Of a stretch of DNA of 49,505 bases, positions 24,518-27,134 are shown piece by piece. Each line of letters opens with the position of its first letter. The stretch's first letter is position 1. The position numbers and the translations under genes were made by a program. The stretch comes from Candidatus Daviesbacteria bacterium (GTDB lineage: Bacteria > Patescibacteriota > Microgenomatia > Daviesbacterales > UBA10151), in NCBI GenBank assembly GCA_016183225.1, contig JACPEZ010000004.1, positions 1-49,505 on the forward strand, given 5' to 3'. The notes beneath the pieces are model-generated. The model was given only the letters and a program-made list of their open reading frames with translations, had not been told where the DNA came from and made no database searches.

Positions 24518-25672
24518 ATGTATTACAATAGAAGATTTTCAAGGCCTCGCGTGCAAAGAAGAAGCCAATTGGAAGGGGCAGATATTAATATGTTTATCAA
24601 AAAAGCTGTTCCTGTTACAGACCAGGTAATCCCGAAAGAAGTTTCTTTTGACGATTTTGATATTGCCCAAACCCTAAAAACAAATATAAAAAATCACGGT
24701 TATACAAAAACCACTCCAATTCAAGCCCAGGCCATACAACCTATTTTAGAAGGTAGGGATGTTATTGGACTGGCTTCAACAGGTACTGGTAAGACCGCTG
24801 CTTTTTTAATTCCTTTAATAAATAAACTGTTAAAAAATAAATATCAAAAAGCTTTAATAATCGTTCCCACACGGGAACTGGCTGTTCAAATTAACGAGGA
24901 ACTTAAACATTTTGCTCTGGGTATGAATATTTATTCGGCTTTAATAATTGGCGGGGCTAATATGCGCAGGCAAATTAATGATCTAAGAAGAGGCGCTCAA
25001 ATAGTGATTGCCACACCAGGCAGGCTTACGGATTTAATTAAACAAAGAGTAATTTATTTGGGAAATTATGCCAATATTGTTTTGGATGAGGTTGATTTAA
25101 TGGTGGATATTGGGTTTATTAATGATGTTAAATATTTTATATCTTTAATGCCGAGAATCAGACAGTCCTTATTTTTTTCAGCTACTATCCCTTCCAAGGT
25201 TCAGGGGATTTTGCAAGCATTTGTCATAAATCCCATAACTATCTCTGTTAAAAAACAGGATACTTCTGAAAATGTGGATCAGGATATTGTCAGGGTTATA
25301 AATCCGGCCAAAAAAATGGACCAGCTTCATGATCTGTTAATCCAAGACGGGTTTGACAAAGTTTTAATTTTTCTGCGCACCAAGCACGGGGTTGATAGGT
25401 TGCACAGGGAACTTGAATACAGAGGGTTTAAAATAGGTGTTATTCACGGGAATAAATCGCAGGGGCAGAGGCAAAGGGCCTTGCAGGCTTTTAAGCAGGA
25501 TGAATTTCAAATACTTCTGGCCACAGACGTGGCTTCCCGCGGTTTGGATATTGATAATGTTACCCATGTGATAAATTACGACCTTCCCCAAACATATGAT
25601 GATTATATTCACAGAATAGGCAGAACAGGCAGAATTGGCAAATCCGGCACAGCTCTGACTTTTGTAAACTAA
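24518..25672 (+). CDS. DEAD-box ATP-dependent RNA helicase
   Basis: Q motif (GYTKTTPIQ), [32 protein letters not shown]. Confidence 0.9.
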   Translation: [384 protein letters not shown]

Positions 25673-25687
25673 CCAACCCTTCTCTAT

Positions 25688-25999
25688 TTAAGTCGCTGCC
25701 TGCATATAATCCACAACTATATTAATGATTTCCCGGATACTTTTGTTGCAATTTTTAAAGTATATATTGTCTAATATCTCACTCCCTAAACTTCTAATCA
25801 ATTCACTTATTAAAGCATGAACGAAAGATTGAGTTGCTGATTCTACGCCTTCAAAATCTAGAGTAATTTCTCCATTCTTTTCTAAAACCGGCATTAGATA
25901 TTTAATCCTTATATCTCTTGCTATGTCTTTATTTTCAGCGAATACGCCAGTTTTAGGTAACAGTTTTACCTGAAAGGCAGCTTTGCTTATTATCTTCAT
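25688..25999 (-). CDS. STAS-like DUF4325 domain protein
   Basis: GVFAENKDIARDIRIKYL...GEITLDFEGVESATQSFVHALISEL matches the DUF4325 pattern (..lDF.gV...s.SF..e.). Overlaps the upstream ATPase gene by 4 nt. Confidence 0.65.
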   Translation of the reverse strand: MKIISKAAFQVKLLPKTGVFAENKDIARDIRIKYLMPVLEKNGEITLDFEGVESATQSFVHALISELIRSLGSEILDNIYFKNCNKSIREIINIVVDYMQAAT

Positions 26000-26955
26000 A
26001 TAAATTTTGCCTTGTAATATACCTTCCTTTGTTCTTTAACAGCCTTAGAATAACTTTTTCTAATCAAATCCAGCAAAAGAGAAAATTCTTCTGTACTATC
26101 CAAGTTTATATCAATTCCAACAGCGGTACCCTGCCAATACGGGAAATCTCCTCCTTTAGAATGCTTATCTTTAAAGGGATCTGCATGCAGACGTATGCTT
26201 TTCCTGTTATCGGCTTTTAATAGTTTATACATACCGTTTCCGCTATATATTACAAAAAAATCTTTGTTTACTGTGGCTATAGACTTAATGAAAAACAGTC
26301 CGGCGCCTGCATTATAGTCAGTGCCGCCTATTCTCTTTGTGGTCCCGGTTATTCCCGGTGTTAAAGCAAGGCCAATTGCTTCAAGGTCAGTTTTGGCTCT
26401 ATGCAACGGCGAAATTGTTTTTAGTATGCCTACCCCCCTATCTACAATGCCAATTCTTATTGTATTACTTTTTTTATAATACTGAGCGCACAGGATAACA
26501 CCAATCTTAGACATAGCATGCTCAAATACATTTCTCATTAATTCACTTAATATATACCTGATAGGCTCTGCGTGTTTGGGGGATAAGTACAATAATGGAA
26601 CCACCTCGGTAATAAACTCGGTTAATTTTTCACTGTTAGTTATTTGTTTTAATGGTATAAATCTTCCGGCAGATTCATGTTCTGTAATTTCAATTCCAGA
26701 GTCAATCTTCAAAAAATCAAACAATCCCATTCTCTTGAGATAATGTTTAGATCTTGCCTCCATAGCCTCACACCTCACCTGTTTAGGTTTAAGAGAAAGG
26801 CCTAATGCGGCAATCATGGCAATAACCATTGGATGTATTGAAATCCACTGTTTATTTGCAGTGATTTCAAGCGCTTCCGGGCTTGAGGCATCAAAATTTC
26901 TCAAAAATGGGTCAATATTACCTAAAAAAGCGCTATTTGGTATATTTATTTTCAT
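25996..26955 (-). CDS. GHKL-superfamily (HATPase_c, SpoIIAB/histidine-kinase-like) ATPase with uncharacterised N-terminal domain
   Basis: N box SELMRNVFEHA, G1 box IVDRGVGI, G2-like NAGAGLFFIKS. No DHp/His phosphotransfer domain or TM segments recognised. Confidence 0.65.
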   Translation of the reverse strand: MKINIPNSAFLGNIDPFLRNFDASSPEALEITANKQWISIHPMVIAMIAALGLSLKPKQVRCEAMEARSKHYLKRMGLFDFLKIDSGIEITEHESAGRFIPLKQITNSEKLTEFITEVVPLLYLSPKHAEPIRYILSELMRNVFEHAMSKIGVILCAQYYKKSNTIRIGIVDRGVGILKTISPLHRAKTDLEAIGLALTPGITGTTKRIGGTDYNAGAGLFFIKSIATVNKDFFVIYSGNGMYKLLKADNRKSIRLHADPFKDKHSKGGDFPYWQGTAVGIDINLDSTEEFSLLLDLIRKSYSKAVKEQRKVYYKAKFI

Positions 26956-27053
26956 ATCAGATTATTTTACCAGGATTGCCGGATGTTTGCAAGTAATACC
27001 GGGATTCCCGGTAGATTAAACATATTACATGAATCCCGGTAAATATAGACGTG

Positions 27054-27134
27054 GTTTCCCATGATTCGGATATTGGCAATACTTATGATGATTATATCCA
27101 CAGATCCGGCACAGCCTTAACTTTTGTAAATTAA
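27054..27134 (+). pseudogene. decayed duplicate of the DEAD-box helicase 3' end
   Basis: Translates to [26 protein letters not shown], against [37 protein letters not shown] at 25558-25672. It lacks about 27 nt (encoding IGRTGRIGK). The stop and the following CC are shared. Confidence 0.8.

Follow-up and report, generated by a model that had tools for sequence, protein, structure and literature searches.

The window analysed here, a 49,505-nt stretch of a Candidatus Daviesbacteria genome (contig JACPEZ010000004.1), carries a two-gene cassette inserted between a DEAD-box helicase gene and the convergent gene of the GTPase Obg. The affiliation of the host is reflected in its TypA protein, whose best named relatives all belong to Candidatus Daviesbacteria (70-78% identity), which makes the host a member of the Patescibacteria (CPR). 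The helicase gene (24518-25672, plus strand) is recognised by its reading frame and by its Pfam domains DEAD (1.3e-45) and Helicase_C (9.2e-35), and a search of metagenome contigs retrieved 52 loci with orthologues of 58-90% identity; obg (27131-28096, minus strand) is recognised by its reading frame and by the domain GTP1_OBG (2.6e-44). The inserted unit spans 1,356 bp (25687-27042) and consists of a promoter/operator region followed by two minus-strand genes overlapping by 4 nt (ATGA), which we call K (25996-26955, 319 aa) and S (25688-25999, 103 aa). An earlier note made from this DNA alone had described a ~1.4-kb insertion with overlapping genes for a 319-aa GHKL protein and a 103-aa STAS-like DUF4325 protein. 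The open reading frames, the match of S to Pfam PF14213 (E = 3.8e-12) and the invariant N, G1 and G2 boxes of K agree with that description, and the limits of the unit are now refined.

The cassette is flanked by two copies of the 3' end of the helicase gene. The intact copy (25541-25676, plus strand) comprises the last ~44 helicase codons, the stop codon and two further bases (CC), and is followed by a 13-nt junction leading to the S stop codon (25675-25687) that is homologous neither to the target nor to other cassettes. It aligns with a second copy on the other side of the cassette (27042-27138, plus strand), which starts at ~27042/27047 and is 77% identical to the first in a MAFFT alignment. 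This second copy has decayed through a 6-nt deletion, a 27-nt deletion corresponding exactly to the IGRTGRIGK codons, and a mutated patch at 27047-27085. A repeat finder independently reported the two copies as families D1 and D2, and local alignment of the two cassette flanks gave a score of 47 (z = 13.5 against shuffles). The TAA of the decayed copy (27132-27134) overlaps the stop codon of obg, with which the copy is contiguous. The earlier note had noticed both the ~27-nt loss and the overlapping stops, and had proposed from them that helicase and obg originally lay tail to tail around what is now an insertion flanked by a duplicated helicase end.

This original layout can be seen directly in two loci of relatives. 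In L083, whose helicase is ~90% identical at the amino acid level, and in L091, the two genes meet tail to tail, their stop codons overlap and no insert separates them. These relatives lack the cassette, and the pair is not a conserved syntenic core locus without a duplicated tail, the alternative that the earlier note had set against its own proposal. L083-L086 and L091 all share the gene order helicase-obg-nudix-typA with the window. In a multiple alignment, the decayed copy and the end of obg in the window are colinear with the L083/L091 junction, including the sequence past the stop codon in L083, while the intact copy aligns with this empty-site junction only up to two bases past the stop; the decayed copy is therefore the resident tail. 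In three further loci (L084-L086), the helicase/obg junction holds another gene, coding for a 145-aa protein with tandem VKKDLNGVKEDLG repeats (L084 2966-3460), and no duplication of the helicase tail. The presence of a different gene at the same place indicates that this junction is a variable insertion spot in the clade.

Comparison with the eight closest copies of the cassette (74-88% nucleotide identity) delimits the mobile unit. DNA homology runs from the S stop codon (25687/25688) to 27042-27044, 87 nt upstream of the K start, and such exact borders fix the unit at 1,356 bp and the duplicated target segment at ~115-135 bp. In all eight loci the flanking DNA is unrelated to that of the window. 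In L001, which comes from a host related to that of the window, the K protein is 94% identical, against 62-71% for neighbouring housekeeping genes whose counterparts lie ~6 kb away in the window. The insert has no anomaly in GC content (0.34-0.38 against 0.36-0.42 nearby), and base composition therefore gives no mark of foreign origin. The pair is a compact, horizontally mobile cassette, as the earlier note had supposed when it spoke of a self-contained, horizontally inserted pair.

Concerning its distribution, we found 3,020 relatives of K in a set of 5.8 billion proteins, the top 120 all being at least 66% identical. When one genome per species was scanned, 442 species proved to have relatives, the best 80 of which are 62-93% identical. 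Among these best 80, Patescibacteria are represented by Davies-, Roizman-, Collier-, Peregrini-, Pacei-, Gracili- and Saccharibacteria, other bacteria by Elusimicrobia, Omnitrophota, WOR-1, Margulisbacteria and Planctomycetes, and archaea by Woese-, Nano-, Aenigm-, Micr- and Iainarchaeota (DPANN) as well as Thermoplasmatota. Between domains of life, K identity is still 62-70%, and the archaeal copies group essentially as a single clade in a neighbour-joining tree, which requires at least two switches between domains. The S gene follows K in 80 of 82 loci. With a ratio of nonsynonymous to synonymous substitution rates of 0.04-0.08, K is under strong purifying selection. After clustering at 50%, the wider K family counts 117 representatives at E <= 1e-30 and 1,116 at E <= 1e-10.

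Viral and plasmid sequences hold distant relatives of the pair. Those in IMG/VR viral contigs are 21-44% identical. In the plasmid collection a single distant pair was found, on an Alicyclobacillus plasmid, and in the phage collection likewise a single one, in Marinitoga phage MPV1. The latter (L137, 36096-37449) combines a ~300-aa protein with a DUF4325-type protein beside an integrase or repressor. A similar distant two-gene pair in a Francisella prophage (Fhv_0046/0047) adjoins a temperate-phage integrase or repressor (PMC7924643). Such a position in phages is typical of moron, defence or lysogeny control genes. Searching plasmids with a VapS fragment returned only a truncated DUF4325 gene in Leptotrichia.

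The K protein has three parts: an N-terminal alpha/beta domain (residues 1-~105), a GHKL kinase domain (~106-287) and a basic C-terminal helix (288-319). The residues of the N box (E138, N142), G1 box (D172, G174, G176) and G2 box (G217, G219) are invariant in 32 homologues. In the AlphaFold2 model, which has a mean predicted local distance difference test (pLDDT) score of 83.9 and a predicted template modelling score of 0.88, the C-terminal part adopts a Bergerat fold, for which Foldseek returned Topo VI-B, Hsp90 and SpoIIAB with probabilities of 0.96-1.0. Template modelling (TM) scores against SpoIIAB were 0.56-0.67 when normalised to the target, and the matches included the SpoIIAB-SpoIIAA and UsfX-RsfB complexes, so that the SpoIIAB/SpoIIAA analogy drawn in the earlier note is apt at the level of fold. 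NCBIfam gave only a very weak match to TIGR01925 (spIIAB). Both motifs and model point to K as a member of the GHKL (Bergerat-fold) ATPase/kinase superfamily.

Within this superfamily, K resembles VapK, for which we fetched the E. coli vapKSC locus (L138), which carries a PIN gene. BLASTP aligned the two proteins at 31% identity over 126 aa of the kinase core (E = 3e-13), and hhalign extended the similarity to both domains when a diverse K profile was used (98.6% probability, E = 6e-16, 239 columns, K residues 23-287 against VapK 34-287). K and VapK also fall in the same PHROG family (phrog_3364). From this homology, K is a predicted Ser/Thr kinase of the VapK/CapK family with a STAS-like N-domain and a GHKL domain. 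We also considered the K N-domain as a DUF4325 paralogue of S, and rejected it, as hhalign against the S family gave 0.1% probability with shallow profiles.

S is mostly 96 aa long across copies and ends with its STAS domain. The 103 aa of the window copy result from a 7-aa insertion, SKAAFQV, after residue 4 (S residues 5-11, 25967-25987), which keeps the reading frame and is absent from the other 80 of the 81 copies aligned. All 81 share an invariant T56-Q57-S58 triplet. The only solved structure that the S profile detected above noise is PDB 9z7o_A, 'Escherichia VapS' (E = 0.0015); hhalign between S and E. coli VapS gave E = 1.5e-5, and VapS homologues carry the same PF14213 domain. In the alignment with 9z7o_A, VapS S48 falls at Q57, inside the TQS triplet. 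S is therefore best described as a predicted STAS-like DUF4325 protein of the VapS/CapS family with a candidate Ser/Thr phospho-acceptor. Natural fusions of K and S (P0134, P0259, phrog_5816 and the N-terminus of one PADLOC DrmA model) provide evidence from gene architecture that the two proteins probably act together.

The region upstream of K (26956-27042, minus strand) contains a promoter with conserved operator sites. A 17-bp palindrome, TACCGGGAWTCCCGGTA, whose half-site is CCGGGA, lies upstream of K in 79 of 82 loci when up to three mismatches are allowed, and in at least two copies in 35 loci. In the window, the promoter scan located a TG-extended -10 box, TAAAAT (26969-26964, minus strand), and a -35 box, TTGCAA (26992-26987, minus strand). 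A degenerate palindrome (26967-26983) covers the -10 box, a perfect one, TACCGGGATTCCCGGTA, lies at 26997-27013, and a distal half-site (27034-27041) stands at the very edge of the cassette. The 17-bp palindrome occurs once in the 49.5-kb window and, in ~1 Mb of fetched loci, is found upstream of K only, with the exception of one solo copy. The latter (L023, 6920-6975) consists of a half-site and a perfect palindrome, TACCGGGAATCCCGGTA, ~1.4 kb downstream of the cassette with no K or S gene behind it, and may represent the remnant of a second cassette or a target in trans.

The same operator is combined with two types of core promoter. Loci with a bacterial-type promoter, all 43 of which bear bacterial labels, have a TTGACA-like box at -36 and palindromes starting at ~-55 and -27, the second of which runs at its end into the -10 box (GGTATAAT). 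Loci with an archaeal-type promoter, all 21 of which bear archaeal labels, have a palindrome starting at -58 and a TTTATAAATA box at -30, followed by a half-site. The core promoter is thus of σ70 type in bacteria and of TATA type in archaea, with the operator kept across both. Because the genes keep their operator when the core promoter is replaced by one of another type, the protein that binds it is expected to be encoded by the cassette itself, which would mean autoregulation. In these 64 loci, the geometry of the -10 or TATA box (26956-26969 in the window) places the start of transcription at or next to the ATG, from which we infer a leaderless mRNA, and neither the window nor the equivalent region of the 64 loci shows a Shine-Dalgarno sequence upstream of K. 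A leaderless mRNA could help the cassette to work in both domains.

In three loci with a variant operator (L051, L065 and L020), K carries unique substitutions in residues 11-13, within the conserved N-terminal PNSAFLGN motif, or at E308 in the C-terminal helix. The variant operator of L051 is CCGGCATTGCCGG, and S is nearly unchanged in these loci (a single L47I in L051). Such co-variation, anecdotal in number, is a weak hint that K may contact the operator.

Alignment of 350 nt on each side of every cassette revealed that the window is not the only locus with a duplicated target. Direct repeats abut the element in at least eight other loci, some of them perfect (46 bp in L018, 35 bp in L062, 26 bp in L056), and the others measuring 75 bp in L010, 88 bp in L071, ~130 bp in L020, 38 bp in L024 and 19 bp in L064; overall, these flanking repeats span 19-141 bp. 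Of 73 real boundaries, 8 have repeats with z > 6; among 198 control positions taken from these loci, 1 does. The repeated sequences are target DNA, such as gene 3' ends and terminator hairpins, and differ from locus to locus. The element that they enclose measures 1,317-1,431 nt, starts 62-160 nt before the K start, often a few bases from the operator site, and ends 0-71 nt past the S stop.

We found no conserved termini or terminal inverted repeats of the cassette, no enrichment of operator half-sites after the S stop (6 of 78, against a 7% background), and no transposase or recombinase domain in K or S using Pfam, PADLOC, NCBIfam and PHROG. The variable length of the repeats also argues against a transposase with a fixed stagger. 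Three candidates are left for the route of insertion: the filling-in of nicks lying far apart, template switching during replication, and recombination (Campbell-type or homology-facilitated) of a molecule bearing DNA homologous to the target.

A different setting is common to L001, L003, L004 and L005, where the cassette stands beside the 3' end of a tRNA-Gln gene with a tRNA-like fragment on its other side. In L004, this fragment, GTTTTGCTGCGGGTCT, mirrors the real tRNA-Gln 3' end across the cassette (7850-7865 and 9360-9375), and the gene of a 570-aa large serine recombinase (6173-7885) ends at the upstream flank of the cassette. The window has its own tRNA-Gln(ttg) gene (24341-24413) just upstream of the helicase, and in L004/L005 the tRNA-Gln 3' end occupied by the cassette is ~1.2 kb from the position matching the insertion in the window.

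Among 148 immediate neighbours at 80 loci, no gene family occurs more than three times: Phage_integrase, Fic and ABC_tran are found three times each, RhuM and AbiEii-like AAA_21 twice each, and housekeeping genes such as gyrB and those of penicillin-binding proteins are also present. Neither a sigma factor nor a PP2C phosphatase lies near the pair in the window or appears among the recurrent neighbour families of the 80 loci, and the window has no integrase near the pair either, as the earlier note had stated. The cassette of the window has no third open reading frame, and PIN/VapC is not among the families matching at least 2 of the 148 neighbours. Downstream genes differ in every locus, with no bias in orientation (33 co-directional and 32 convergent, of 65); in the window the downstream neighbour is the convergent helicase. 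The pair is therefore a stand-alone form, made of K and S only, without a recurrent third gene. PADLOC matches among neighbours are sporadic, and the enrichment near defence islands or mobile elements that the earlier note had suggested looking for did not emerge clearly from this survey.

The closest characterised systems have been described recently in Proteobacteria. CapK, with a helix-turn-helix (HTH), a STAS and a GHKL domain, is a kinase activated by single-stranded DNA (ssDNA) that phosphorylates Ser54 of the repressor CapS, made of a STAS and a winged HTH (wHTH) domain, which leads to derepression of immune operons; VapK (STAS-GHKL) phosphorylates the antitoxin VapS at S48, which releases the PIN toxin VapC (Chambers et al., EMBO J 2026, PMC13373217). 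CapKS pairs lie upstream of CBASS, Bub and Thoeris operons, and the aromatic residue that contacts ssDNA is W68 in CapK and F54 in VapK (PMC13373217).

With VapKSC, the cassette shares homology of K to VapK over the STAS-like and GHKL domains, a DUF4325 partner with a Ser/Thr cluster at the position of VapS S48, the order K then S with tight coupling (the ATGA overlap in the window), and an organisation in stand-alone operons found in varied contexts. However, it has no VapC/PIN gene, its S protein (96-103 aa) lacks the C-terminal tail by which VapS (116 aa) blocks the VapC active site, K has an additional basic C-terminal helix (288-319) that is absent in VapK, and identity to VapK amounts to only ~31% in the kinase core. 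Moreover, neither the 17-bp operator of the cassette, nor its spread across domains, nor the target duplications have been reported for VapKSC. Like CapK-CapS, the cassette couples a GHKL kinase that has a STAS-like N-domain to a STAS protein, its predicted substrate, and has palindromic sites overlapping the -10 box of a promoter that would be autoregulated. In contrast to that system, K lacks an HTH and S a wHTH (none was found with Pfam and NCBIfam, and S is too short for a second domain), no immune operon follows, the half-site is CCGGGA instead of the TTAA of CapS sites, and the hosts are mostly Patescibacteria and DPANN instead of Proteobacteria.

Other comparisons are more partial. SpoIIAB/SpoIIAA and RsbW/RsbV likewise pair a Bergerat-fold Ser kinase with a STAS partner whose phospho-acceptor lies at the start of helix 2, but they come with a sigma factor and a phosphatase, both of which the cassette lacks, and K is twice the size of SpoIIAB or RsbW, has extra domains, and belongs to a pair that is mobile and also archaeal. 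Concerning known defence systems, PADLOC gave only an N-terminal match to one model, a DISARM DrmA variant (PDLC02567), to which K aligns at positions 30-254 (E = 1.5e-16) and S at 322-390 (E = 9e-4). As both proteins match the N-terminus of this model, a fused K-S module appears to head some DrmA helicases; however, only positions 30-390 of 1750 are matched, and the cassette has no helicase, DUF1998 or other DISARM genes, so that an assignment to DISARM was rejected. The resemblance to type II toxin-antitoxin systems such as HipBA lies in two small, translationally coupled genes, operator palindromes over the core promoter, promiscuous horizontal transfer, including between housekeeping genes, and strong conservation; the differences are that the cassette has no recognisable DNA-binding antitoxin fold and that the larger protein is encoded first. 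Transposons and insertion sequences also duplicate their target, but here the length of the duplication varies, and there are no transposase, recombinase or defined terminal repeats.

Taken together, the pair belongs to the CapK/VapK-CapS/VapS family and is devoid of the defining features of either published system, namely the toxin, the wHTH domain or the regulated operon. The earlier note had considered it a good candidate for an uncharacterised conflict or signalling module. This holds for the two-gene form without a toxin or DNA-binding domain, which is not described in PMC13373217, and no longer for its relatives CapK/CapS and VapK/VapS/VapC, described there in 2026. Nor did we find described in the literature searched the high-identity spread across domains, the maintenance of one operator over σ70 and TATA promoters, or the long variable target duplications in a unit without recombinase.

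From sequence and by analogy, the reading that we favour, and hold to be probable, is that the pair is a mobile cassette with its own operator, acting as an addiction or abortive-infection module of the toxin/antitoxin type in which the toxic activity would be that of the K kinase, and that it was inserted with duplication of the helicase tail. By analogy with CapKS and VapKSC, in the resting state unphosphorylated S, alone or together with K, would sit on the palindromes over the -35 and -10 boxes (flanking the TATA box in archaea), keeping expression of the cassette low and poised, and would hold K in check. A signal of stress or infection, most likely ssDNA bound between the N-domain and the GHKL domain of K, would activate the kinase, which would then phosphorylate S on the invariant T56 or S58, at the start of STAS helix 2. 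S might then change partner or oligomeric state, thereby derepressing the promoter and freeing K, and K (or phosphorylated S) would act on a universally conserved target outside the cassette, giving rise to an addiction or abortive-infection phenotype. K itself is likely the effector, because the pair carries no toxin, DNA-binding domain or downstream operon. As for the insertion, it would have taken place at the overlapping stops of two convergent essential genes and duplicated the last ~115-135 bp of the helicase gene; one copy would keep the helicase intact, and the other, beside obg, is decaying.

Several points weigh against this interpretation. The pair shows no recognisable output, and a module that regulates only itself would have no function; the output and the identity of the DNA-binding protein are the weakest links of the proposal, as no DNA-binding domain was recognised in K or S with Pfam and NCBIfam. 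The residue opposite VapS S48 is Q57 and not a Ser or Thr, which puts the candidate acceptors T56 and S58 off by one, and the invariant W37 of K is two residues off the aligned position of CapK W68 and VapK F54. The generic GHKL signal of K is weak (22.7 bits against Pfam HATPase_c_2, below the gathering score of 27.4), and the model of its isolated N-domain is poor (pLDDT 57). The defence-island signal is weak as well, mobile or defence genes being only sporadic neighbours, and IMG/VR viral contigs contain no close copies. Finally, clear repeats are present in only ~10-12% of loci, and duplication may therefore not be an obligatory product of insertion.

With respect to function, two other explanations start from known systems. 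In classical partner switching, K would be an anti-sigma factor kinase and S its antagonist, with the host sigma factor encoded elsewhere; the pairing of GHKL and STAS proteins, the Foldseek matches to SpoIIAB-SpoIIAA and UsfX-RsfB and the weak match to TIGR01925 are what one would expect from it. Archaea have no sigma factors, and the occurrence of the pair there at 62-70% identity, behind TATA-box promoters, argues strongly against such a role. No sigma factor or PP2C phosphatase recurs next to the 80 loci surveyed, as would have been the case if the pair constantly accompanied one; K has an additional N-domain and is specifically related to VapK, and close relatives lack the cassette. We consider this explanation very improbable. 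A controller of the CapKS type, in which a DNA-damage-sensing pair would regulate an adjacent or distant host or defence operon without being itself the effector, accounts better for the homology to CapK/VapK and for a palindromic operator placed over the promoter, like the sites of CapS. Still, S lacks the wHTH by which CapS binds DNA and K the HTH of CapK, the downstream genes differ at each locus and are convergent in 32 of 65, and the palindrome is confined to the region upstream of K in the window and the ~1 Mb of fetched loci, bar the solo copy in L023, all of which makes it improbable.

The duplicated tail can also be explained in other ways. Classical att sites include the 3' ends of genes and of tRNAs, and the cassette might be what remains of a larger integrative element, the repeats being attL and attR of an integrase-mediated insertion from which all but an addictive K-S module was deleted. 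Its position at gene and tRNA 3' ends, the serine recombinase directly upstream of the cassette in L004 together with the flanking tRNA-Gln-like fragment, and the distant pairs beside integrases in Marinitoga phage MPV1 and in the Francisella prophage fit this scenario. Yet the perfect repeats of 26-46 bp, which imply recent events, already lie 62-123 nt from the K start and 8-41 nt from the S stop, with no remnants of other genes; repeat sequences and lengths differ from locus to locus, which is unfit for a site-specific recombinase; and there is no integrase in the window. We give this scenario little credence. More plausible, although still rather unlikely in our view, is duplication by Campbell-type or homology-facilitated recombination with a donor that carried a helicase tail and the cassette, in which case the intact tail would be that of the donor and the decayed copy the resident one. 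Read from the alignment, 55 well-aligned positions include 1 difference from L083 in the decayed copy and 5, all synonymous, in the intact copy; the decay of the orphan copy is patchy, with ~10 of 29 positions changed beside a perfect 22-mer; and the spread of repeat lengths (19-141 bp) is more easily reconciled with homologous recombination than with a transposase that measures a set length. On the other hand, these counts are low, the intact tail shares 92-97% identity with L083 in the last 120 nt of the helicase, more than the gene does on average, and sliding identity to L083 reveals no foreign 3' segment in the helicase. On balance, the differences lean slightly towards a donor-derived intact tail; moreover, the model leaves the first arrival of the cassette at a new site unexplained.

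A bolder proposal, which we find doubtful, is that the K-S pair represents an undescribed type of autonomous selfish element of 1.3-1.4 kb without a recombinase. It would carry nothing but a damage- or ssDNA-sensing kinase, the STAS protein paired with it and an operator, and would move between bacterial and archaeal genomes, its promoter being of the host type and its mRNA apparently leaderless. It would insert at gene 3' ends and terminators with long variable target duplications, by means of host repair or replication intermediates or of its own ssDNA-binding kinase, and its persistence would be due to K, whose action on a universally conserved target would be addictive or abortive.

Under our favoured reading of a mobile K-S addiction or abortive-infection module, the cassette would represent the kinase-STAS core of the family described in 2026 in Proteobacteria, with neither the repressor-domain nor the PIN-toxin output. 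Patescibacteria and DPANN archaea have reduced genomes with few known defence systems, and in these genomes the cassette ranks with the genes that are best conserved and most widely transferred. Between domains (62-70% identity), the conservation of K is similar to that of the housekeeping GTPase TypA within Daviesbacteria. The output of the pair, the protein that reads the palindrome, and the operation of a single repressor-operator pair on both σ70 and TATA/TFB promoters thus become testable questions. The recurrence of long target duplications around a unit devoid of recombinase points to a route of insertion that is uncatalogued for prokaryotic mobile elements and would explain how the cassette could land between overlapping essential genes with damage to neither.

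Further along the window, the segment 30800-31700 has a GC content of 0.47, against ~0.38-0.42 nearby. It spans an open reading frame of 280 aa (30835-31677) that overlaps the end of the preceding one, and may be another foreign segment.

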